Shown here: piece after piece, positions 15,836 to 26,653 of the stretch
Position numbering within the stretch: the stretch's first letter is position 1
How the letters are laid out: every line of letters starts with the position of its first letter
NCBI GenBank assembly: GCA_963932905.1
Contig: CAWVRN010000012.1
Coordinates: 1 to 64,000 of the forward strand
Length of the DNA stretch: 64,000 nt
DNA from: an uncultured Bdellovibrio sp.
GTDB taxonomy: Bacteria; Bdellovibrionota; Bdellovibrionia; Bdellovibrionales; Bdellovibrionaceae
Direction of reading: 5' to 3'
Notes under the pieces: generated by a model
Database searches by the model: none
Told to the model about the DNA's origin: nothing
Seen by the model: only the letters and a program-made list of their open reading frames with translations
Translations under genes and position numbers: made by a program

Positions 15836-16792
15836 TTGGATATAAAAAACTATTTTCTTACTGAAGCTAAACCATTCACAACAAAACGTGAAGTTCATTG
15901 GAACAGAATTCAAACCTGGGCGATTATTTTTATTGCCCTCTCGGTTTTAGGCCTCCTTCTGATCCCGAGTTCAGATCCAGATCAAGAACGTTTTCATGAA
16001 AAAGCAGAGCGAGGAAGTTTGAATCAAATGAAACAAATCGAAAATGATCCTACTCAAGAGACAATTAGACAGCTTCAAGAATCACAAGTAAGCCTAAAGC
16101 AAGTTCACGAATCGATTGATTATCTTTATCGGCCAGATGCCTTTGATGGCGGTAACCCTGGAAAAAGTGGTCAGGATCGAAGCTCTTCAATGATTCTAAA
16201 TCGTGAAGGACCAGATGAACGCACTCAGCTTTTGGCTGGAACCAGAATATCGATTCGACTATCCGACAAAGTAACAATAGCAAATCACGGGATGCCGGTT
16301 ATTGGGATTATTTCTCAAAATGTTAATAATGATAATGAGATAGCTATTCCTATTGGATCTAAGGTTCTTGGAGATGCTTCATTTGATCCTGATTCTGAAA
16401 GAGCTACAATTATTTGGCGATCCATTGTTTTTCCTAACGGAAGGCAAAGACCATTTTCTGCCATCGGTGTTGGTCGAGACGGACAAGTTGGAGTGATTGG
16501 CCGGGTTCACTCCGACGGCGCAAAAAATATGGTTGGCCAAACCCTCACGCGATTTGTTGGCGCCTATGCAGCCGGTTCAATGACCACAGGTGCCTTAGGA
16601 GCAAATGAAGGCGGGAATGATAACGGTCTTCGTAATGCCGTCGCACAAACAGCTACTGATCGAGCCAATGCTATGGGCGAAGAACTCCAGAAGGAACGAA
16701 AGTGGATTGAACTAGAAAATGGAACCGAAACATACGCTGTCCTAAATCTACCATTTACTTTTAGAGATGCCGGAGTGACTAGTGGACAATGA
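15836..16792 (+). CDS. virB10: VirB10/TrbI-like core protein
   Basis: TTG with SD ggggag; TM; LLAGTRI...IPIGSKVLG...DGQVGVIG. Confidence 0.8.
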   Translation: MDIKNYFLTEAKPFTTKREVHWNRIQTWAIIFIALSVLGLLLIPSSDPDQERFHEKAERGSLNQMKQIENDPTQETIRQLQESQVSLKQVHESIDYLYRPDAFDGGNPGKSGQDRSSSMILNREGPDERTQLLAGTRISIRLSDKVTIANHGMPVIGIISQNVNNDNEIAIPIGSKVLGDASFDPDSERATIIWRSIVFPNGRQRPFSAIGVGRDGQVGVIGRVHSDGAKNMVGQTLTRFVGAYAAGSMTTGALGANEGGNDNGLRNAVAQTATDRANAMGEELQKERKWIELENGTETYAVLNLPFTFRDAGVTSGQ

Positions 16793-18398
16793 GAACAACC
16801 ATTCAGACCATGCCGACAAAATCATTTTCATCACAGCAGCGCTGTTGTTACTTGGAAAGTGGCTTGAGTTTTCTTGGTCATGGGTGATCAAGTCACCAAT
16901 TCATATGGCCATGGTTGCAGGTCCTTTGATTCTACTGACATTTTTTTCAGTTAAAATTGCTTGGAGCAAAATCAGAAAAAACATGGATAACCGCAAGTTC
17001 GAAAAAACGATCACATCAATAGACGCTGACTCAGCATTTTGTGGGACGACTGACAAAAATGAAGATATTTGGATTAAGCCGCGCCAACGGGCAATGCACA
17101 CTCAGGTTATCGGTACCACTAACGCCGGTAAAACTGAAAGTGTGATATTACCTTGGGCGATTCAGGATATACATTCCGGAAAAGGACTTCTCCTCATTGA
17201 TGGAAAAGCCGACAACTCATTAATTGACAAATTATGGGCCTATACCAAATTGGCCGGACGCGAAAAAGATTTCAAACTTTTTAGTTTGAGTCGTAGAGAA
17301 CAGTCGTTTCAGTTTAATCCCTTACTTGGTGGAACCGCCGAAGAAATCACAGAGAGAGTCTTCAACGCATTTGAATTTGAAAATCCATACTATCGAAGCC
17401 TGCAATATGAAGTGATGAACCAAGTTATGCGTATTTTCGAATCCGCAAATTGTGTTCCCACTTTTCAAAGACTCCACCAAGCAATTTCCCGTCCCAGAAT
17501 CATGGAGGAAATGGTTAAGTCATTCCAAGATCAAGAGGTGCGCCGCTGGTATCTATCATTTAGTGAGATGACACAAAAAGATCGAGAAGAACGCACAAGT
17601 GGTCTTTTGTCGGCTATCGGTCAATTTGCTTTCGGTGAAAATGCAAAACTTTTTAATCCCGAGACGGACGCAATTACAATTGATGAAGCGCTAGGTGCAA
17701 ACCAGATTGTTTACTTTCAGCTCCCTGTTTTGCTATCACCTTTCTTAGGCAAAGCAACAGGGAAACTAGTTCTTCAGTCACTACAGGCGGCCGTAGCCAA
17801 TAGACATAGATTGGCCCAAGGAAAAGAGAAGAAATTTTTTAGTGTTTTCTTAGATGATTTTTCTGAGTACCTCTATGAAGGATTTGTCTCGATTCTGAAC
17901 AAATCACGATCGGCCAATGTAGGAATTGTGTTCGCTCATCAAGCTTTAGGAGACATTACCGTTCTTGGAGATTCAGTCGCAAACTCGATTCTAACAAATG
18001 CTAACATCAAAGTATTAATGCGAGGTAATGATCCCGATTCGGCAGAATACTTTTCAAAAGTCATTGGGACATTGACTGCCACTAAGACTACCGAACGTCA
18101 GACCAAAAGCCTATTTGGAACTAGAAAAAGCGGTGAAATGTCAGCGAGAGAGGCTGAGGAGTTCGCCATTCACCCCAATGTCTTCAAAAAAGATTTGGGT
18201 GTTGGCGAAGCTATAATGATTGTGCCCCATGAAAGGGGATCAAAAACTGTGCGAATCAAATTTAGTAAAACTGATGATCTAGACGTACAAACTCTACCCA
18301 TAATCAGGAAAACATTGATGCCATTGCTTGATGAAAAAGACGATCTACAAAAACAAACAACCAAAAACAGAAATAGTGACCTCGACAATGCAACTTAA
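16782..18398 (+). CDS. virD4: Type IV coupling protein (TraD/VirD4/TraG family)
   Basis: Two N-terminal TMs; HTQVIGTTNAGKT; IDGKAD; FNPL; FLDDF; KSRSANV. Confidence 0.9.
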   Translation: MDNENNHSDHADKIIFITAALLLLGKWLEFSWSWVIKSPIHMAMVAGPLILLTFFSVKIAWSKIRKNMDNRKFEKTITSIDADSAFCGTTDKNEDIWIKPRQRAMHTQVIGTTNAGKTESVILPWAIQDIHSGKGLLLIDGKADNSLIDKLWAYTKLAGREKDFKLFSLSRREQSFQFNPLLGGTAEEITERVFNAFEFENPYYRSLQYEVMNQVMRIFESANCVPTFQRLHQAISRPRIMEEMVKSFQDQEVRRWYLSFSEMTQKDREERTSGLLSAIGQFAFGENAKLFNPETDAITIDEALGANQIVYFQLPVLLSPFLGKATGKLVLQSLQAAVANRHRLAQGKEKKFFSVFLDDFSEYLYEGFVSILNKSRSANVGIVFAHQALGDITVLGDSVANSILTNANIKVLMRGNDPDSAEYFSKVIGTLTATKTTERQTKSLFGTRKSGEMSAREAEEFAIHPNVFKKDLGVGEAIMIVPHERGSKTVRIKFSKTDDLDVQTLPIIRKTLMPLLDEKDDLQKQTTKNRNSDLDNAT

Positions 18399-18414
18399 AC
18401 TTTAAGGAATAAAA

Positions 18415-18867
18415 ATGAACTTTATTAAATTTAGGAAAAACGTTATTTTGATTTTATGGATACTTGCCCCTGCTATTCAAGTCGGCTGCGCATCAAAGAG
18501 TAAATCGGCAGGGCTTGGATCAGCAATTGGCGCCAGTAGTGGAGCCGCACTGGGTGGAATCGTCGACCCGGGAAACAATGGTCAATATCGAACCCGAAAT
18601 GTGATTATCGGTGCAGGCCTCGGCGCGATAGCTGGGGGCCTTACAGGTGCTTCAATCTACGAAAACAATGAGCGAGACAAAGAGCTTTCATACCTAAAAG
18701 GAAAAGAAGCTGGAAGAAAGTCTTCACAGTCTAAGGCTACTCCTTTATTGCAAGAACCAAAAATTGAAGCCATTTGGGTGGAAAGTAAAGTTTTAGGTAA
18801 CCGATATATCGAAGGGCACTTTGAATATATAATTTCTGAACCTACCCGTTGGGAAGCGCCTCAATGA
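18415..18867 (+). CDS. Glycine-zipper lipoprotein with TraV-like C-terminus (VirB7 equivalent)
   Basis: Lipobox QVGC; two GxxxG zipper segments; PKIEAIWV...GHFEYII.EP.RW. Confidence 0.6.
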   Translation: MNFIKFRKNVILILWILAPAIQVGCASKSKSAGLGSAIGASSGAALGGIVDPGNNGQYRTRNVIIGAGLGAIAGGLTGASIYENNERDKELSYLKGKEAGRKSSQSKATPLLQEPKIEAIWVESKVLGNRYIEGHFEYIISEPTRWEAPQ

Positions 18868-19613
18868 AGTATCCACACGGCCGCAAATTATCTAAAAATG
18901 CAGCTGAGGCTGTAAGATTTGTCGCAAAGGTCGGATCACTGGAACGAGAAATATGGTACAAACTTTTTGGCCAAGGAACACTCAGGTGGAAACAAATGCA
19001 ACTTCAGCATTTAATAAATCGAAAGATTTTTAAATACAATACAAGCAAGCATGGTCATGACGCCGTTGTAATTGATCGTTTTGGCGTTGAGTTAATTAAA
19101 AGCATGGGATGGCAGCACGTTAATACTATTTATCCGCACGAAATTGAACATGACGTAACAATCGGCGCTGGCGCCTGGGAAATTGAAAAAGCGGGGTTCT
19201 GCCAAAAATGGATGACAGAACGAGAGTTAAAATCTCAAAAACTGGACAACTTCAAATTGGATCTAAAAAATGATGGCATCAAATATCCAGATATCGTTTG
19301 TCGAATTCACGGAAAAACAACATCGCCGATAGTAGCCTTTGAATATGAAAAAACATCCAAAACAAATTGGAGATATAACAAAACCATAAAAGCCTATAGT
19401 GAAGGATTCAACTTTTCGTACATATTTTTTGTTGTCGCCAATGCAAGCATTGAACAGACAATAAAAAAAGCTATGCAATACATTCAGGATGGACAACTGA
19501 ATTCAAAGATAGGCTTTATTTCCGTAGAAGATTGGAAAAGAAACCCACTAAATGCGAAAATTAGAGGCTTGAAGATTGCGGAAAATCTAACTGAACTCGC
19601 GTCTAAAATTTAA
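18864..19613 (+). CDS. MOB_C / replication-relaxation family relaxase (PD-(D/E)xK fold)
   Basis: HEIEHD; YPD-x14-FEYEKTSKTNWRY fits the MOB_C motif D..ExE..K...RY; ATGA overlap with the previous gene; near the coupling protein. Confidence 0.7.
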   Translation: MKYPHGRKLSKNAAEAVRFVAKVGSLEREIWYKLFGQGTLRWKQMQLQHLINRKIFKYNTSKHGHDAVVIDRFGVELIKSMGWQHVNTIYPHEIEHDVTIGAGAWEIEKAGFCQKWMTERELKSQKLDNFKLDLKNDGIKYPDIVCRIHGKTTSPIVAFEYEKTSKTNWRYNKTIKAYSEGFNFSYIFFVVANASIEQTIKKAMQYIQDGQLNSKIGFISVEDWKRNPLNAKIRGLKIAENLTELASKI

Positions 19614-19712
19614 TTTTAGAAGTCTTCGTCGAATACTTCGTGTAGCGAAGCATCTGACTAACTGAAAACAAAATTAAAACTATGTCTAACTATTTAAAAC
19701 AACAGAGATCTG

Positions 19713-19821
19713 CCGCCGCCGCCTCGTTCTTAACGTCCCTTTCTTCGCTACTGACCCCTCCCACCCAACGATGTTGATTGGAAGGGGTCAGTAGCAAGGG
19801 ACTAAACATCGGTGGCGGCGG
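19713..19821. other. Long GC-rich rod-shaped inverted repeat (oriT / single-strand origin / structured RNA candidate)
   Basis: ccgccgccgcc/ggtggcggcgg, gtccctt/aagggac, gctactgacccct/aggggtcagtagc (13 bp perfect) and caac/gttg nested around a 3-nt loop. Confidence 0.65.
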
Positions 19822-19842
19822 GGTAATGGGAGATGAAAAATA

Positions 19843-20235
19843 ATGAATAGTGAAAATAAAATAGAGAAAGAAGAAGATAAGATAGAGGGAACAAAGGCAG
19901 GCGGAGGCAAAGATCTGCAAAGAATTACCGTATCGAAAGACGCACAAAGTGCCTTAGAAATTATTAAAGATCGCGTCAATGATGGATTCAATGGCGGTCG
20001 CGTCAATCTAACTCAAATGGCAAACTGGATTCTACTTCGTTTCCAAAATGAACTTGATGAATCTTATATCAAAGAAATAAGAGCCGACCATTTTGACGAA
20101 CTAGCTATGCTTGAAAGCGTTTTAAAACAAGCTAAGGAGTCTGGAAAAGTACCAACGGAATTCAAGTACTTGCTTCAAAAGCAACTTGGGATAGACGAAC
20201 CAACAAAACGTAAATCTAAGGTCACATTGACATAG
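19843..20235 (+). CDS. Hypothetical protein (possible ribbon-helix-helix-like accessory protein)
   Basis: SD gggag; RITVSKDA strand followed by helices; next to the hairpin. Confidence 0.65.
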   Translation: MNSENKIEKEEDKIEGTKAGGGKDLQRITVSKDAQSALEIIKDRVNDGFNGGRVNLTQMANWILLRFQNELDESYIKEIRADHFDELAMLESVLKQAKESGKVPTEFKYLLQKQLGIDEPTKRKSKVTLT

Positions 20236-20263
20236 AATAATCTCTATGTCATCATTGATGACA
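20227..20263 (+). promoter_or_regulatory. Overlapping palindromic operators on a TTGACA -35 box
   Basis: tgacataga-N6-tctatgtca (20228-20251) and tgtcatca-t-tgatgaca (20247-20263); TTGACA at 20227-20232. Confidence 0.5.
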
Positions 20264-20305
20264 CGACCTAGGAGAAATGAATGACGATAACTGAATGGCA
20301 AAATA

Positions 20306-20530
20306 ATGAAGGGTAACGAAATAAAAGCAATTCGCGAAAAGTTGGGTTTCGACAGACACCAATTTGCCGAGTGTCTTTGCCTTTCTGGATATCGTTCAAT
20401 GATGAACATTGAACACGATTTTCGTAAATCGAGTAAACTGACAATTCGCTTTCTTCGTTACCTTGAAAGCCTTCCAAAGAAGAAGGCATTGCAATTTCTT
20501 GAGGAGTTTTCTACCCATGAATCTACTTAG
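20306..20530 (+). CDS. Small Cro/XRE-like HTH protein
   Basis: EIKAIREKLGFDRHQFAECL.LSGYRSMMNIE. Confidence 0.8.
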   Translation: MKGNEIKAIREKLGFDRHQFAECLCLSGYRSMMNIEHDFRKSSKLTIRFLRYLESLPKKKALQFLEEFSTHEST

Positions 20531-20555
20531 TTTTTTTCTAAATTGGAGCTTTAAA

Positions 20556-20759
20556 ATGGCCAATCAAAGCGCTAAAAACAACAAAGCGCAACATGACCAT
20601 TTGCCAAAAATTATTTTGATTCCTTCTCAAAACAGTAAAATTGACGGTCATAAAAAGTCGGAAGAAATCCTATACTACCTCACGCAGATAATTCTTCTTT
20701 CAGACAAAAAAGGCAGACCATCAAAAAATCAATTTCCAGAGGTGCAAGATGCCATTTAA
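20556..20759 (+). CDS. Small protein overlapping the recombinase start (directionality-factor candidate)
   Basis: ATG 20556 with SD ggag; 67 aa; KKGRP motif. Confidence 0.55.
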   Translation: MANQSAKNNKAQHDHLPKIILIPSQNSKIDGHKKSEEILYYLTQIILLSDKKGRPSKNQFPEVQDAI

Positions 20760-22554
20760 AATAGGTGCCTATGTGCGAGTCAGCACAGAAGAACAAGCCA
20801 ACATTGCCGACGGATCAATTGATTCTCAACAGCACAGATTAAAAGCCTATCTTGATCTTAAAAACCACCAAGAAAAAAATTGGGGAAGGATAGTCGATTT
20901 CTATATCGATGACGGCTATTCAGCAAAAGATACAAAACGTCCCGCGTATCAAAAAATGACCCGAGATTTGAGGACTGGAAAAATCAATTTGATTCTTGTG
21001 ACAGATTTATCACGCCTATCAAGAAATATTGCGGACTTCTGTCGGCTACAAGACGAACTCGCTTCATTCAAAGCTAAGTTTCACTCAATAAAAGAGCAAT
21101 TTGATTCAACCTCTCCGTCTGGTGAGATGATGCTTTTCAACCTGATAAATCTAGCCCAATTCGAGCGGAAACAAACATCAGAAAGAGTATCACTTAATTT
21201 TCACTCAAGAGCATTAAGAGGACTATCTAACGGTGGCTGCAATATCCTTGGTTACGATCGCGACCCAGAAAATTCAGGTAAATTTATTGTCAATGAATCA
21301 GAAGCGATAGTTGTTCGTAGAGCATTTGAATTGTATCTAGATTCAAGGAGTCTTGCCGAAACTGCAAGACGACTTCAGGATGAAGGACATCACCCAAAAG
21401 TTCATTCTTTAAAGCGAGCACGGTTGGCGAGGGACGGAAAGTGGACTTTATACTCTGTTCGCACAGTGCTTAAGAATATGGCCTACATTGGCATTCGTGA
21501 GATCAACAAAGACAATAAAAATGTCGATCAAAATGACCTTAAGCCTTGGCAAAGATACGAAATGGTTAAAGCAGCATGGCCAGCCATTGTTTCCAAAGTA
21601 GTTTTCGATGACGCCCAAAAGTCTTTAGATGATGGACTTCGCCTTGAGAAGCAAAGACTAAGCACCGCTGAGACAAGATTTTTCTTACTGTCAGGAATTA
21701 TTCGCTGCGGGGAATGTGGCAAAGCCTTAGTTGGACAAAGTGCACACGGAAAAAGCCAAGTCCATCGTTACTATGGTCATTCTAAAATAGACAAAGGTAA
21801 CAGTAAGCCATGTGCAATTAAGAATCTTAGAGCTGATGCTGTTGAAACAGCACTCTTAAATTATCTGGATGAAATCATAGTCAAATCTGGTCACCTAAAC
21901 CGAATCGAAAAGAATATGAAATCCCACCTGATGACCACTAGTGAAGATTTACGACTAGAAAAGGAAATCAAGGAAAAGGCTTTGCATGATTTAGAAAACG
22001 AAATTGATTCCGTCTTGAAAATTCAATTTTCAATGGAGTCTAAGACTCAGGTTACAAACCTTTTGGCAGAGAAGCTGGAAACCATGGCCGAACAAAGAAA
22101 ACTTTTAAAACTATCTTTGCTCAACATTAAGAACCGACTTGATAGCTCCAACGATGCTAGAGCCTCGAGACTAAACCTTGAAGAAAATCTAGAGAAGTTT
22201 AGGAACGGTTGGAAGAAATCCAACCCAACCGTTCAAAAACGGTTTTTAAGACGTATGATTGATTGTCTCGTTTATACATCTGAAGGGATAAAGACTTTTT
22301 ACCATTTGGATGTTTCTTCGAACTCAGAAAGCCAAAAGAACCAGAAAAAATCGCCAGAATATTTGAACCCGCCGTCCGGATCATTTACGGGGGTAAACCA
22401 ATCGCTTCGGCGATTGGTGGTATCCTCGAACCAGTTGATTAAAAGTTCGTCTGATTTTAAGGATGGTGCGCCCGGAGAGATTCGAACTCCCGACCAATCG
22501 GTTCGAAGCCGATTACTCTATCCAGCTGAGCTACGGACGCGTACAAGCCGATGA
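20749..22554 (+). CDS. Large serine recombinase (resolvase + recombinase + Zn-ribbon + coiled coil)
   Basis: YVRVSTEEQ (catalytic Ser); DDGYSAKDTKRP; DLSRLSR; AQFER; LLSGIIRCGECG. Confidence 0.95.
   Translation: MPFKIGAYVRVSTEEQANIADGSIDSQQHRLKAYLDLKNHQEKNWGRIVDFYIDDGYSAKDTKRPAYQKMTRDLRTGKINLILVTDLSRLSRNIADFCRLQDELASFKAKFHSIKEQFDSTSPSGEMMLFNLINLAQFERKQTSERVSLNFHSRALRGLSNGGCNILGYDRDPENSGKFIVNESEAIVVRRAFELYLDSRSLAETARRLQDEGHHPKVHSLKRARLARDGKWTLYSVRTVLKNMAYIGIREINKDNKNVDQNDLKPWQRYEMVKAAWPAIVSKVVFDDAQKSLDDGLRLEKQRLSTAETRFFLLSGIIRCGECGKALVGQSAHGKSQVHRYYGHSKIDKGNSKPCAIKNLRADAVETALLNYLDEIIVKSGHLNRIEKNMKSHLMTTSEDLRLEKEIKEKALHDLENEIDSVLKIQFSMESKTQVTNLLAEKLETMAEQRKLLKLSLLNIKNRLDSSNDARASRLNLEENLEKFRNGWKKSNPTVQKRFLRRMIDCLVYTSEGIKTFYHLDVSSNSESQKNQKKSPEYLNPPSGSFTGVNQSLRRLVVSSNQLIKSSSDFKDGAPGEIRTPDQSVRSRLLYPAELRTRTSR
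22464..22540 (-). tRNA. tRNA-Arg (anticodon TCG)
   Basis: GCGTCCGTAGCTCAGCTGGATAGAGTAATCGGCTTCGAACCGATTGGTCGGGAGTTCGAATCTCTCCGGGCGCACCA: 77-nt cloverleaf with encoded CCA. Confidence 0.98.
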
Positions 22555-22560
22555 AGGGTC

Positions 22561-22589
22561 AATATACTTCCTTAAAATTCGGGTGTAAA
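22561..22589 (-). promoter_or_regulatory. sigma70-type promoter of tRNA-Arg
   Basis: TTTACA-N17-TATATT on the minus strand, 20 nt upstream of the tRNA. Confidence 0.65.
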
Positions 22590-22720
22590 CCCTAAAAACC
22601 TCTTCCAGTTAAAAATATTGTAAAGGAAATGTTGCGCAAAAATTGGGATACTTGGTGGGTGTTCTACCATAGCGGGCGCAAAGAGGGGGCTAATGGACGT
22701 TGTTCCTGACCAAGCAGTTT

Positions 22721-22987
22721 TTACGCCAAAGGTCGTCGCTTTCTCATCCAATTTGTAAAAAAGATTTTAATTACATTTACATGAGTTTTGCGATGGCTCC
22801 GCTTTTTACGAAAAGACAAAGCCGCCACAGATAACTGATCTGGGTTCATATTGATAAGTCCCAGCTTTTCATCTTGAGTTAGGTCTAAGTCGGCCAATGC
22901 CGCTTGCGCATCAATTTGAAAAAGATCTAGATACGTTTTATCTGTAAGCAATCGGGCGATCGTGTTTTCAAATACGGAATAACTCAT
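22721..22987 (-). CDS. Small helical MNIO-partner protein (NHLP/LigA-like helical pattern)
   Basis: ARLLTDKTYLDLFQIDAQAALADLDLTQDE; overlaps the MNIO stop; SD aagga before ATG 22987. Confidence 0.7.
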   Translation of the reverse strand: MSYSVFENTIARLLTDKTYLDLFQIDAQAALADLDLTQDEKLGLINMNPDQLSVAALSFRKKRSHRKTHVNVIKIFFTNWMRKRRPLA

Positions 22988-23837
22988 TTGAAGTATCCTT
23001 TTCATTGATCAGTTGGTGAATACGCAGCAGTTGTTGTTTCAAAACCGAGCTTGCCGGATAGTTGCCATCGCGTTCTATAATAATAGAAACCGGTTGAGAC
23101 AGTTTTGATAGCGCGTATTTAAGCATTTGAAAACCAATCTCGGGGATGTCTTGTTTGTGATCGTCGAGCATATGGCGAGTGTGTGCGGATTGAATCCATT
23201 TTCCGCCGCTCATGTGAATCTGTTTTACGCGATTAAATGGATAGCGAGCGAGTTCGTGCATGGGGTCCATTTTGAAATTCATGGCGTTGCAGTAAATGTT
23301 GTTAATATCTAATAGCATCTCTTGCTGAGTGGTCGATAGGATATGTTTCATCCAATCTATTTCCGAATAGGTGCTTAATGGTGGGTGCAACAAAGTCGAT
23401 ATGTTTTCAAGAGCAGGCAGGTGACCCAATTCGTTTTTGATATGCCTTAGATTTTTTAATGTTATCGAAATAGTTTCATCGTTCCAAGGCGGCGCCGCTA
23501 AGTGCCCCAATTCGATTCCGCCAGAGCGAACAAAGCTAAAATGATCCGACCAGGATTCGATAGAAAACATATTGAAAAACTTTTTATATTTTTTTAATTC
23601 GTTTTTTGGCAGTGGTTCGCTGCCGCAAATACCAAGACCAACGCTATGAAAATGTAAATTGTAAAGGGTGTTTAAGAACCTTAGAGTTCTTATATCTTTC
23701 GCGGATAAATTATAAAAGTTTTCGACTAGGATTTCTATGTCGTCTATCAAATCTGAATTTTCTAAAATAAAGGCAGCGATTTGCGGTCGCCATCCAATAC
23801 CAACTGTATGTTTAGGCTTAGCTGCCGCAACCACCAC
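22968..23837 (-). CDS. DUF692-family multinuclear non-heme iron oxidative enzyme (MNIO)
   Basis: GIGWR; EILVEN; HSVGL; WSDH; ALEN; LLDINN; QIHMSGG; DDH; IERD. Likely GTG start at 23837 or 23834. Confidence 0.92.
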   Translation of the reverse strand: MVVAAAKPKHTVGIGWRPQIAAFILENSDLIDDIEILVENFYNLSAKDIRTLRFLNTLYNLHFHSVGLGICGSEPLPKNELKKYKKFFNMFSIESWSDHFSFVRSGGIELGHLAAPPWNDETISITLKNLRHIKNELGHLPALENISTLLHPPLSTYSEIDWMKHILSTTQQEMLLDINNIYCNAMNFKMDPMHELARYPFNRVKQIHMSGGKWIQSAHTRHMLDDHKQDIPEIGFQMLKYALSKLSQPVSIIIERDGNYPASSVLKQQLLRIHQLINEKDTSNELFRI

Positions 23838-24699
23838 AGCCCCCTCCGCATCCGCCTCCACAGCCACTACTGCTACAGGAACTGCCGCACGATGACCCGC
23901 ATGACGAGTTCGCGCTGCCAGATTTCAAAGATCTTGCAAATAAGTCTTTAGCATATCCATACGTTTCAACAGGTAAAATCGAAATTCCATGGACAGCTAC
24001 AATCAGTGCCAATTCGTTGGATTCACCTTTGGTTAAATTGCGAAGTCTATACGTAGCATCCTTTAGCAATAATTGCATATTGTCCAGGAACGCAGATCCT
24101 GCGCTTGTGATTTTTTTTGGTGTTAAAAAGTTCATGAAAGCGACCATGATCACTGAAAATATAACAAGAAAACCGACGTTGGTTTTACCACGGTTTAATG
24201 CAATTAAAATTTTTGTTATTGGGATAAAAAGCAAAACACCGTAGCCAACAAATAAAAGCGTATTCTTGGTGGATTTGGCTTTGCCTGCATAGAAATAGTC
24301 CTTGGCCTCTAACACGTCTATATAGGGACGTGTGCAGGCGTACACTTGACTGTCTTCAATAATATCTTCGATCCGTTTTGGTTCTTGAGTGCTGCGTATG
24401 ATTTCTACTTCGAGCGGCTTTTTAACAAAATCCTTGGCATTTTCTGTGGATTTTAAATACTCACCATCACTGACAATCAAAAGGCCGCGCTCGATGAGCG
24501 AAATGATGGCAACCCGAATGACTTCGGGTTCTTCACCTCGAAGGCAAGCAATTGTATAAGGGTCTTTTAACATTTCATGCCCAGATATTTTTGATGGACT
24601 GACGGCGCGCAAAAGAATGCGGACTGTGATTATCCAGCACAAGCCAAAGAAACCATAAAACACTAAAAATTCAGGACCTTTCCAATCAAACGGGTTCAT
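23818..24699 (-). CDS. TIGR04222-like integral membrane protein with Cys/Gly/Ser-rich C-terminal tail
   Basis: MNPFDWKGPEFLVFY; DPY.IA.LRG; RGK.NVGFL; ends SSCGSSCGSSCSSSGCGGGCGGGCGGCGS. Confidence 0.88.
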   Translation of the reverse strand: MNPFDWKGPEFLVFYGFFGLCWIITVRILLRAVSPSKISGHEMLKDPYTIACLRGEEPEVIRVAIISLIERGLLIVSDGEYLKSTENAKDFVKKPLEVEIIRSTQEPKRIEDIIEDSQVYACTRPYIDVLEAKDYFYAGKAKSTKNTLLFVGYGVLLFIPITKILIALNRGKTNVGFLVIFSVIMVAFMNFLTPKKITSAGSAFLDNMQLLLKDATYRLRNLTKGESNELALIVAVHGISILPVETYGYAKDLFARSLKSGSANSSCGSSCGSSCSSSGCGGGCGGGCGGCGS

Positions 24700-24700
24700 T

Positions 24701-25405
24701 TTAAGTTCCTAGTACGTTTTGCATTTTTTTTAATATCTCTAAGTAAGCTTGATACGTAGGTTCGATCTGATTCTTAGATAACGTCGATGACTCTCGGATA
24801 GTAGAAATTGTTTCGCTTAATTGTTCAGCGCGGTCGGGAAAATATTTCTTCAAAAAGATGTTTAACGCCTCTTTTGGGTTTTTGGCAGATTCGCCTTGAA
24901 GGCTAACAAGTGAAAACGCATTTGTGCGTAGAGGGCCAGAAAATTCGTTCATAATATGTACAAGTTGTTCTTCGCGAAGACTTACGAAGGTATATCGTTC
25001 ACGCAGTCGCATCGTTAAATTCATTAGAGATTGCTTCAACTGGAATTTTAAATTCGCTGGATCGATTTTTATTTCAGGAATTATGTTGGCCCCGGCAACG
25101 ATCTGGTTACGTTTAGAAATATCGTAAAACTTTAATGGAAACGTTTGGCAGACTTGATCCAGCTCACTGCGCTCAATAAACAGACAAGATAAATGAATTA
25201 AATTGTGGTGATCGCGATATTCTGATTTGATTTTATCCAGAGTCGCCAGTGAACTTGAGTTCAGTACAACCAATAAATTTATATCTGAATTAGCACGAAT
25301 TCTATTTTCAGCAGCCGAGCCAAATAGAACGGCCGAATACAATTCGGTGCTAAGTTTGTTTTTTAAAAAATCGATAAACGAATTAAGCAGTTCTGTTTTT
25401 TCCAT
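24701..25405 (-). CDS. Pol-beta-type nucleotidyltransferase domain protein
   Basis: VLFGSAA...SDINLLVV motif and a helical C-terminal half. Confidence 0.8.
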   Translation of the reverse strand: MEKTELLNSFIDFLKNKLSTELYSAVLFGSAAENRIRANSDINLLVVLNSSSLATLDKIKSEYRDHHNLIHLSCLFIERSELDQVCQTFPLKFYDISKRNQIVAGANIIPEIKIDPANLKFQLKQSLMNLTMRLRERYTFVSLREEQLVHIMNEFSGPLRTNAFSLVSLQGESAKNPKEALNIFLKKYFPDRAEQLSETISTIRESSTLSKNQIEPTYQAYLEILKKMQNVLGT

Positions 25406-25420
25406 GCTTGTATACTAATA

Positions 25421-25452
25421 ATGAAACTAGTTTCTGCCCAACTAGTTTTCAT
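25421..25452. promoter_or_regulatory. Tandem AACTAGTT palindromes upstream of the MNIO operon
   Basis: gaaactagtttc (25423-25434, perfect 12-bp palindrome) and aactagtt (25440-25447). Confidence 0.45.
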
Positions 25453-25478
25453 GGAACAGGCTCAAGGGCCAGAATTGC

Positions 25479-26051
25479 TTATTTTAACCAAACACTGCGA
25501 AAATTATCTCGATCCACGGGCCAACTTTGCCAAGCCATTTTGATATCTAAAGCCAAGACGAAGTTTCCTAATATAGTGTCTAAATCCTCTAGATCCCAGA
25601 AATCTTTTTGATGTTTAGAATTCTTATTAGTTTTTGCTAATTGGGAAACGAGCGACAATACCATGCCGGTCATCGGAGGAATCAAAAAACCTAAAGTGGA
25701 AAGGACACCTTGCATACGTGATAGAATTCCTTTGCCGCCCACCGAGTGCATCAAAACAAAAACGGCGCAAGGTTTACCTATAAATACATCGGTGCCTTCA
25801 TAATCCGTTAAATCTTCAAACATGGCCTGCAGAGGGCTGCCCCATGAATCCCAATACGTTCCCGTCACAAATACGACTCCGTTTGACTTTTTTAAATCAT
25901 TCACAAGGCTTTTATTCGTTTTAAGCTTGGCAAGATGAACGATGCGGACATGGGCGGTACCTTTTAATAACTTTTCAAGTTTTGTAATCAATTTTGCACA
26001 GTTACCAGAATTACCGTTGGGGCTACCATTAAGAATCAAAATTTGCTTCAT
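25479..26051 (-). CDS. Flavodoxin-fold NAD(P)H-dependent FMN reductase-like protein
   Basis: ILILNGSP..NSGNC; VFVTGTYWDSWGSPL. Confidence 0.8.
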   Translation of the reverse strand: MKQILILNGSPNGNSGNCAKLITKLEKLLKGTAHVRIVHLAKLKTNKSLVNDLKKSNGVVFVTGTYWDSWGSPLQAMFEDLTDYEGTDVFIGKPCAVFVLMHSVGGKGILSRMQGVLSTLGFLIPPMTGMVLSLVSQLAKTNKNSKHQKDFWDLEDLDTILGNFVLALDIKMAWQSWPVDRDNFRSVWLK

Positions 26052-26146
26052 TTTTTTAAACCTCGCGTGTTTATAATAAATGTGAATTTTCAGGCGGGCT
26101 AGCAGTTTCGCCTGACTTTAAGTTTTTTAGGTGGTTCAATATTTAA

Positions 26147-26653
26147 ATGAAGATTTTAAGTCTATGCGGCAGTCTAAGATCCAATTCAACCAACGGTCAT
26201 TTGCTTGCGGCGGCAAAGACTGTTCGCACGCAAGATACTTGGATGGATTTTAAAATCAGCGACTTGCCTTATTTTGATCCCGACAATCAGTATTCAGAAC
26301 AAACTCCTAAAATAGTTTTGGAGTTGCGTAAACAAGGTGCCACTGCCGAAGCTATTTTTATAGCCACACCCGAATATGCTCACGGAGTACCTGGAATTTT
26401 AAAAAATGCACTGGAATGGTTGTTTCACGAAGGAACAATGAATAAACCAGTCTTTGTTGTCATCGGGACAGCGCAAGGCGAGCATACCCGGGATCAACTT
26501 GTCGAAATCATGAAGACTATGGATTTTAAAATCGAGTTGAATCAGGTTCTGGTGATTAAGGGAGCGCGATCAAAAATTAGCTCAGCGGGAATATTTACCG
26601 ACGAAAAAGTTAAAAAGTCATTTCAGGAATTTTGTCAGAGAATAGGAAATTAA
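26147..26653 (+). CDS. NADPH-dependent FMN reductase
   Basis: GSLRSNSTN; TPEYAHGVPGILKNALEW. Confidence 0.9.
   Translation: MKILSLCGSLRSNSTNGHLLAAAKTVRTQDTWMDFKISDLPYFDPDNQYSEQTPKIVLELRKQGATAEAIFIATPEYAHGVPGILKNALEWLFHEGTMNKPVFVVIGTAQGEHTRDQLVEIMKTMDFKIELNQVLVIKGARSKISSAGIFTDEKVKKSFQEFCQRIGN

Follow-up and report, generated by a model that had tools for sequence, protein, structure and literature searches.

A four-gene MNIO module from an uncultured Bdellovibrio sp. that may mature the cysteine-rich tail of a TIGR04222 membrane protein

In the first 64,000 nucleotides of contig CAWVRN010000012.1 from an uncultured Bdellovibrio sp. (assembly GCA_963932905.1), the stretch of DNA analysed here and referred to as the window, four tightly packed open reading frames (ORFs) on the minus strand occupy positions 22721-25405, less than 2.7 kb in total. 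They encode a protein of the nucleotidyltransferase (NTase) fold, a TIGR04222 membrane protein with a Ser/Gly/Cys tail, an MNIO (DUF692) enzyme, and a small protein of 88 residues. Small peptides that are secreted or exported, for example methanobactins and bufferins, are the setting in which MNIO enzymes are known. For the module in the window, we consider it probable that the four genes together, in the roles proposed below, mature the C-terminal tail of a full-size membrane protein. The components of the module are as follows:

24701..25405, minus strand: NTase-fold protein, 234 aa, matching Pfam Polbeta and NTP_transf_2
23818..24699, minus strand: TIGR04222 membrane protein, 293 aa, matching NCBIfam TIGR04222
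23821..23907, minus strand: codons of the Ser/Gly/Cys tail, 29 residues with 7 Cys, the proposed substrate, read from the translation
22968..23834, minus strand: MNIO (DUF692), 288 aa from GTG 23834, in an ORF open from GTG 23867
22721..22987, minus strand: small protein, 88 aa from ATG 22987, with an N-domain of about 63 aa and a tail of 25 aa

A preliminary description of this DNA had called the four genes tightly coupled, and all of them are present, with one nucleotide between the NTase stop codon and the ATG of the membrane-protein gene, the likely MNIO start 17 nt inside the end of the membrane-protein gene, and an overlap of 20 nt between the 3' end of the MNIO gene and the small gene. 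The likely MNIO start is GTG 23834, which was selected from the upstream GGAGGGG that precedes it with a 6-nt spacer. Judging from sequence comparison, the four-gene arrangement is not due to chance, because dozens of unrelated contigs share its order and strand. The same description had seen no short precursor peptide nearby. In agreement with this, when 22000-26600 was scanned for ORFs that are 20-120 aa long and contain three or more Cys, no free-standing small Cys-rich ORF emerged; the four Cys-rich ORFs that the scan returned are all nested in larger ones, three of them antisense within the module genes and one within the gene at 26147-26653. In a promoter and terminator scan of 22300-26300, promoter-like sites were rarer than in shuffled sequences and no useful terminator was obtained.

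The recurrence of the module was examined in metagenome contigs, which were scanned with an alignment of 40 homologues of the membrane protein (alignment A1). In the 41 loci obtained, stop-to-stop ORFs were searched with the window proteins and then with family profiles, and because these profiles include some of the 41 loci, the hits for those members arise by construction. Order and strand are the same for all component matches. A locus was taken as assessable for the NTase with at least 250 bp upstream of the membrane-protein gene, for the MNIO with at least 90 bp downstream of it, and for the small-protein domain with sequence after the MNIO match, which gave the following counts:

NTase: present, directly upstream of the membrane-protein gene, in 29 of 34 assessable loci, with 7 not assessable; lacking in L020, L033, L037, L038, and L043
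MNIO: present in 30 of 33 assessable loci, with 8 not assessable; lacking in L019, L039, and L048
Small-protein domain: present in 19 of 22 assessable loci; lacking in L013, L033, and L038

In the case of L013, profile position 178 is as far as the MNIO match itself extends. In most loci, the stop-to-stop ORFs of the membrane protein and the MNIO overlap, and in many loci the ATG of the small gene overlaps the MNIO stop codon by one base. The genes beyond the four differ between the 11 long loci examined, and the module is therefore self-contained; it is also compact and widespread.

In the order to which the window's genome (G000) belongs, 80 of the 201 sampled genomes have an MNIO match at E ≤ 1e-10. 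Outside G000, a close MNIO was found only in G154 (198 bits), where it lies in the same four-gene module (locus L052, the same place as L006), and the rest scored at most 113 bits. Most of ten further MNIO loci inspected in this sample have secreted Cys-rich precursors of the bufferin type beside the MNIO. The preliminary description had named homologous MNIOs that commonly occur without the Cys-tailed protein as a finding that would speak against it; such a pattern was not seen in the 201 genomes, where the close MNIO subfamily is present only in the module. TIGR04222 occurs in five of these genomes, G000 included, and when genome contigs were searched with the membrane protein as a single query, one distant locus (L001) was obtained. 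Of nine further genomes from the genus, three (G206, G204, and G205) have the complete module, and in six it was unmatched; the copy in G206 shares about 76% nucleotide identity and the same right-hand neighbours with that in the window. The window thus holds an intact member of a published class, which is discussed in a later paragraph, with a patchy distribution in the lineage.

The membrane protein scored 59.2 bits against NCBIfam TIGR04222 (cut-off 43) over model positions 16-229 of 229. Of 8000 candidates scored in a word-based search, 3658 were homologues at E ≤ 1e-3; their length is 290-300 aa in nearly all cases, and the best has 45% identity; many are named TIGR04222, and the source names are from Acidobacteriota metagenome-assembled genomes. 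The protein had been described as having three transmembrane (TM) segments and a specific string with seven Cys at its end. The last 29 residues agree with that string exactly, and the AlphaFold2 (AF2) model, built with A1 at a predicted local distance difference test score (pLDDT) of 88.4, displays three long hydrophobic helices. From the N-terminus, the model consists of TM1 (residues 8-33), a soluble mixed alpha/beta domain (47-132), TM2 (139-169), TM3 (176-192), a helical region (199-265), and the tail (266-293), for which a pLDDT below 50 is consistent with disorder. Across the 40 homologues in A1, the C-terminus ...C-GGGC-GGGCGGCG[GS] is invariant or nearly so; the other best-conserved parts are the first dozen residues (MNPFD..GPEFL), a DPY..A.LRGG stretch, and the basic TM2-TM3 loop. 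Fold searches with the model gave no convincing relative, as the best match in Foldseek was GOLPH3/Vps74 with an E-value of 0.2 and the VIA-wide list was topped by generic three-helix bundles (ribosome recycling factor, Z 10.5). GOLPH3 (3kn1), aligned in VIA with Z 7.3 over 162 residues, is a weak lead only.

Long TIGR04222 proteins of 515-560 aa (P0141-P0162) also end in Cys/Gly tails, and their N-terminal domain, precomputed as PF27765, has a conserved WHLHL...HH.P.KGG stretch. One further sequence, P0140 (529 aa), has a Cys/Gly tail running into an MNIO domain. It was given no weight, being a single C-terminally truncated sequence that may represent either a true fusion or a frame error in the repetitive tail-coding region.

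The enzyme of the module matches PF05114 with an E-value of 8.8e-61 and 205.9 bits (cut-off 25) over model positions 2-261 of 263. In an alignment of 22 MNIOs, H63, H98, E143, D176, N179, H207, D224, H226, and E254 are invariant; the alignment includes two bufferin-type paralogues of the same genome, in which all the shared invariant columns are kept. The spacing of these nine columns matches what we take to be the iron-ligand set in the MbnB and TglH structures, in line with the recognisable His/Asp/Glu motifs reported in the preliminary description. Among solved structures, the DUF692 protein 3bww is the best relative (E 2.6e-24), with TglH and MbnB next. BufB (NF050167) and HvfB (NF003818) are the nearest NCBIfam models, and the enzyme stays below the equivalog cut-off of both, with 170.7 vs 310 and 142.6 vs 360 bits, respectively. 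Two other MNIO loci in the same genome (C41:16457-17254, L002; C22:3153-3923, L003) are classical bufferin-type clusters with a secreted Cys-rich precursor, an MNIO, and a protein of 218-256 aa in the position of the DUF2063 partner. Upstream of these two clusters lie genes for secreted proteins of 139-205 aa.

The best indirect evidence that the tail is the substrate comes from the three loci in which no MNIO was found (L019, L039, and L048), all of which keep the NTase and the Cys-tailed membrane protein. In L039, a gene for a radical S-adenosylmethionine (SAM)/SPASM protein directly follows the membrane-protein gene. In L048, a radical SAM enzyme scored 487.6 bits on TIGR04082, the model for the thio(seleno)oxazole maturase SbtM (cut-off 350), and the radical SAM proteins of the two loci are mutually related at 27% identity (E 5e-27). 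[quoted passage not shown] Because two unrelated enzyme families with the same reported type of product adjoin the same kind of tail, the swap, seen in two loci, supports both the assignment of the tail as substrate and that of thiooxazole as product. The claim in the preliminary description that the MNIO acts on the Cys tail has accordingly gained comparative support from the near-invariance of the tail, the presence of an MNIO after it in 30 of 33 loci, the module-specific MNIO subfamily, and the maturase swap, but it is weakened by the possibility that the small protein is itself a precursor. In L048, a TrkA-N/potassium-channel-type gene (L048:5761-7671) lies between the gene for the Cys-tailed protein and the SbtM-type gene. 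The same TrkA-like gene (L019:1820-2419) follows the gene for the Cys-tailed protein in L019, after which the contig ends.

We propose that the MNIO, with a multi-iron centre and O2, would oxidise the seven Cys residues of the tail, most likely to 5-thiooxazole rings as in the bufferins, and that the outcome would be a membrane-anchored string of soft-metal (copper-type) ligands. The role of a metal chelator or sensor put forward in the preliminary description may apply by analogy with the bufferins. The 88-aa protein would serve as the docking subunit of the MNIO through its NHLP/LigA leader-like fold, in the way that such domains bind enzymes in borosin systems, and its polybasic tail would keep the complex at the membrane's inner face. 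The NTase-fold protein would be a dedicated third accessory of the membrane protein and not of the MNIO.

The small protein consists of an acidic NHLP/LigA-like four-helix N-domain of about 63 aa and a polybasic/aromatic tail of 25 aa, and its AF2 model is all-helical with a pLDDT of 85.6. It had been described as a helical partner, which is correct as far as the helices are concerned, but the protein is not merely helical, as it resembles RiPP leader domains. A word-based search gave one relative and a full HMMER scan gave 14 at E ≤ 1e-3; together with the copies from the loci, the family alignment (A2) has 28 members. In A2, the N-domain ends with ...SF..KR and is followed by a variable stretch of 6-34 residues. 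The tail of the family averages 6.2 K/R against 0.5 D/E over 22 residues, with aromatic residues and no conserved Cys. On the Os1348 NHLP-clan model (NF038399, cut-off 40), the window protein scored 30.7, which is below the cut-off, while P0130 reached 49.8, L043 39.3, and P0129 37.5, so that the family straddles the threshold. Pfam gave sub-threshold matches of the family members to Frankia_peptide, LigA, NHase_alpha, and Nif11. When the family profile was compared with the PDB, the best matches were SonA (7ltc, E 8e-4) and Os1348 (6lk7, E 2.8e-3), followed by the nitrile hydratase alpha subunit, DesB, and OphMA. The AF2 model gave 6lk7 as the top match in both structure searches, with an E-value of 0.027 and TM-scores of 0.56/0.72 in Foldseek, and with Z 7.5 in VIA, a Z in a range that can reflect a common helical arrangement, at a root-mean-square deviation of 4.0 over 73 of 78 residues; SonA, a borosin methyltransferase, and LigA came next in VIA (Z 5.6-5.8). 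With modest scores and the same relatives (Os1348, SonA, the OphMA clasp, and LigA) recovered by sequence and by structure, the predicted fold resembles the leader domain of Os1348.

The suggestion that this partner differs from the usual DUF2063/RRE type has held up in the searches made here. A Pfam scan of the 88-aa protein gave no family match, DUF2063 included, its closest matches are Os1348 and SonA, and hhalign gave an E-value of 0.51 between the small family and the partner-position proteins of bufferin-type loci, a comparison set (A5) picked by gene position and not by a DUF2063 match in Pfam. Neither NGO1945 (3dee) nor TglI (8hi7) is in the Foldseek and VIA lists for the model. Longer forms of 153-204 aa in L020, L022, and L043 have the same N-domain and the same position after the MNIO, and their residues 71-137 show a weak similarity to the bufferin-type partner-position proteins (E 0.034, probability 1.5%). 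In L023, the N-domain is in frame with the MNIO. In solved complexes, such leader domains sit on their modifying enzyme, according to PDB entry titles and the text of 10.1101/2025.10.30.685615. From these comparisons, we infer that the small protein is the enzyme-docking piece of a partner.

The NTase assignment in the preliminary description stands with regard to the fold, as Pfam Polbeta (PF18765) was matched with 27.6 bits (cut-off 26.9) and NTP_transf_2 was also above its cut-off, but not with regard to the motif. NTases of the pol-beta type have [DE]-x-[DE] as the metal-binding pair, and the window protein departs from this canonical pair with the motif G29-S30 ... D41-I-N43. In the hG[GS] motif, G29 shows no variation and S30 hardly any; N43 is the same in all 21 aligned sequences (A3), and D-x-N is found in 23 of 23 sequences of another alignment; Polbeta was matched by 20 of the 21 family members. 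Because Asn replaces the second carboxylate across the family, the activity is uncertain, and the protein may transfer nucleotides or only bind them. The best match of the 21-member profile is AadA (7uy4, E 2.4e-6), and AadA/ANT(3'')(9) are the best solved relatives, with the N-terminal motif and the overall two-domain size common to both. In contrast to these enzymes, only the first ~60 residues align, AadA has D-I-D where the family has D-V/I/L-N, and the scores are far below the cut-offs of the resistance families, so nothing suggests a resistance function for the NTase-fold protein. A search of the ESM Atlas with the NTase gave only clusters that are unnamed or named 'nucleotidyltransferase domain'.

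The NTase is, by its gene neighbourhoods, tied to the membrane protein and not to the MNIO, because it is retained when the MNIO is replaced and because fusions of the two exist. In these fusions (P0137; P0138, of the same type as L022; and P0139, whose linker looks frame-shifted), the NTase is N-terminal to the MNPFD helix. All 14 assessable loci with the small partner have the NTase, and in the NTase-less loci L020, L043, and L033/L038, the last two of which are near-identical, the protein after the MNIO is longer (171-204 aa). In this small sample, the co-occurrence of the small partner with the NTase is only a lead. A gene for a TIR-domain protein is found at L033:598-1506, upstream of the module variant without NTase at a distance of about 1.5 kb.

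The longer proteins in the NTase-less loci suggest that the NTase stands in for a missing recognition part. This leads to a more specific version of the proposal, which we hold only tentatively, in which the module is a split RiPP system whose recognition function has moved off the substrate. The free-standing leader-like domain of the 88-aa protein would dock on the maturase and activate it in trans, its basic tail would bring the maturase to the membrane, and the NTase-fold protein, with its degenerate active site, would recognise the membrane protein. Because either an MNIO or an SbtM-type enzyme serves the pair of NTase and membrane protein, the product in such a system would be a membrane-tethered poly-thiooxazole.

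Several points weigh against the maturation of the tail by the module. In the literature searched, we found no biochemistry on any TIGR04222 tail, and a survey published in Microbial Genomics (Microb Genom) in 2025 (PMC12452194) gives none in its text for the TIGR04222-MNIO class; the same text states that MNIO genes are missing from a third of the genomes that have TIGR04222 genes. The weak TIGR04222 matches of G064 and G092 in the order sample lie on contigs other than those of their MNIO. The chemistry could differ from that of BufB and HvfB because the equivalog cut-offs of these two models are not reached. The small protein resembles genuine RiPP precursors and is possibly a substrate and not a partner; PosA from strain Os17, a leader-like protein of this fold, is described in 10.1101/2025.10.30.685615 as a proven precursor from a cluster with an MNIO fusion.

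The remaining points of this kind concern the topology, for which the evidence is split. The fusion of the NTase straight before TM1 and the short, conserved, and basic TM2-TM3 loop (1.85 K/R in 7 residues) both point to a tail outside the cytoplasm, which would require the modification to take place before translocation. The text of PMC12452194 likewise puts the tail in the periplasm for the TIGR04222 members modelled there. On the other side, the flanks of the long loops have 9.0 K/R vs 2.3 on the other side, and all three accessory proteins are without signal peptides as read from their translations, both of which point to a cytoplasmic tail. The four long members that were inspected (P0141, P0144, P0150, and P0159) have an N-terminal domain of about 200 aa, no signal peptide, and one extra hydrophobic helix before the core, and the soluble domain and the tail would therefore both be inside. 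Most of the longer TIGR04222 proteins appear to share this plan, with PF27765 in 18 of 26. Charge counts alone leave the topology ambiguous. Taking the sequence features together, we lean slightly toward a tail in the cytoplasm.

The resemblance of the small protein to precursors also allows the substrate to be placed elsewhere. The 88-aa protein would then be a true RiPP precursor, with an NHLP/Os1348-type leader and a basic core modified by the MNIO on non-Cys residues, and the membrane protein would be an exporter, anchor, or immunity component with an untouched tail. The leader-like fold and the sequence matches to Os1348 (PosA), SonA, and the NHLP models fit such a role, a conserved N-domain followed by a variable C-terminal stretch is typical of a leader and its core, and besides the proven precursor PosA, the text of 10.1101/2025.10.30.685615 has the MNIO domain of PflD hydroxylating Asp in the related PflA. 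However, the C-terminal stretch has no conserved residue, and within its range of 6-34 aa four members end as few as 6-11 residues after the domain. The same N-domain heads the proteins of 153-204 aa in L020, L022, and L043, which look like enzyme partners, and it is in frame with the MNIO in L023. The near-invariant Cys tail would be left unexplained, as would the replacement by Cys-modifying radical SAM enzymes in loci whose searches recovered neither the MNIO nor the small domain. We regard a precursor role of the small protein as distinctly improbable.

Another arrangement, which we consider very doubtful, has the Cys/Gly tail working unmodified, for example in direct metal or Fe-S binding or in redox sensing, and the MNIO acting on an unlinked substrate, so that shared regulation would be all that connects the two genes. 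A run of free thiols is able to bind metals alone, 3 of the 33 assessable loci are without MNIO, and in the text of PMC12452194 many TIGR04222 genes are without MNIO and more than a quarter are without C-proximal Cys. Such an arrangement is at odds with the overlap between the MNIO start and the end of the tail-coding sequence in the window, which recurs as an overlap of ORFs in most loci, and with the confinement of the close MNIO subfamily to the module within the order sample. Two of the three MNIO-less loci have a radical SAM/SPASM peptide maturase nearby, and no other Cys-rich candidate substrate was found in the window region. If the tail is the substrate of the MNIO, the product may still be something other than thiooxazole, such as an oxazolone-thioamide, the result of a beta-carbon excision, or cross-links, with a function other than copper binding. 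Such a product would fit an enzyme that scored 170.7 where BufB requires 310, and according to published abstracts, thiooxazole and oxazolone-thioamide are hard to distinguish, with closely related MNIOs assigned either product. Since BufB and HvfB are nevertheless the nearest models, and since L048 has as its alternative maturase an equivalog of SbtM, whose name refers to thio(seleno)oxazole formation, we think a different product unlikely.

Maturation of the tail to thiooxazoles therefore remains the reading that we favour, and it can be compared with what has been described for related systems. The pairing of TIGR04222 with MNIO, together with the proposal of the Cys tail as the substrate, was published in 2025 on the basis of in silico work (PMC12452194), which limits the value of the window. 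The preliminary description had presented the class as one without biochemical characterisation, in line with the text of that survey, but the novelty that it implied is reduced, since the pairing is described there. As in the clusters of the survey, the window has a Ser/Gly-rich TIGR04222 protein with C-proximal Cys encoded directly before the MNIO, no DUF2063 signature in the cluster, and an MNIO close to the bufferin type, and it thus falls within the published class. According to the survey's text, at least 10% of the TIGR04222-MNIO clusters encode PME-type 2 partners related to NGO1945/TglI and many seem partnerless, whereas 19 of the 22 loci assessable here have a small NHLP/LigA-like protein after the MNIO. 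The words 'nucleotidyltransferase' and 'NHLP' are absent from the main text and the two supplementary text files of the survey, a check outside which its figures fall, including the gene organisation in Fig. 4b. The D-x-N NTase and the leader-like small protein are thus two of the four components that were not found in the text of the 2025 survey.

The bufferins (Buf1/Buf2, with BufB and the DUF2063 partner BufC) share with the module, as proposed here, the targeting of Cys, and BufB is the nearest model of the enzyme. In contrast, the module has as its candidate substrate the tail of a polytopic membrane protein of 293 aa and not a small secreted precursor with a signal peptide, no similarity was detected between the 88-aa partner and the partner-position proteins, there is an additional NTase-fold gene, and the BufB cut-off is not reached. 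The features of bufferin precursors (DUF2282 or Buf_6/12_Cys), namely a small secreted precursor with a Sec signal peptide and a DUF2063 partner, were not found in the module by the ORF scan of 22000-26600 and Pfam. The N-domain of the 88-aa protein is like the NHLP, Os1348 (PosA), and LigA-like leaders and SonA both by profile and by fold; unlike them, the protein is below the curated cut-off (30.7 vs 40), lacks a recognisable core peptide, and seems to act alongside a substrate that is a separate protein. SbtM (TIGR04082) adjoins the same pair of NTase and Cys-tailed protein in L048 and has the same reported type of product as the bufferin MNIOs, but its enzyme family is unrelated, and the window does not contain it.

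In the window, the downstream boundary of the module is marked by a tRNA gene outside it:

22464..22540, minus strand: tRNA-Arg(TCG), found by ARAGORN

A gene for a large serine recombinase of 601 aa with Resolvase, Recombinase, and Zn_ribbon_recom domains (20749-22554, plus strand) runs antisense through this tRNA gene, and its last ~30 codons are tRNA sequence. The DNA to the left of the recombinase (window positions ~16000-22400) matches many scattered places in the genomes of the genus. Together, the recombinase and this DNA have the look of a mobile element that was inserted at or next to the tRNA gene and is distinct from the MNIO module. A module that forms part of the adjoining recombinase element was considered and rejected, as G206 has the module and the same right-hand neighbours, contiguous and at 76% identity, with the element unmatched. 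Upstream of the module, a flavodoxin-like FMN_red gene (25479-26051, minus strand) is divergent to an ORF of 168 aa (26147-26653, plus strand). An FMN_red gene is also immediately upstream of the NTase gene in G206, and it was not found with the module in G204 and G205; it could be a lineage-specific addition to the operon.

If the proposal is true, RiPP-type chemistry would extend to ordinary proteins, here to the tail of a polytopic membrane protein, and the product would be a membrane-anchored metal-binding polymer with candidate roles in copper buffering, sensing, or redox processes. The D-x-N NTase and the leader-like small protein raise the question of how a substrate without its own leader is recognised by a maturase.

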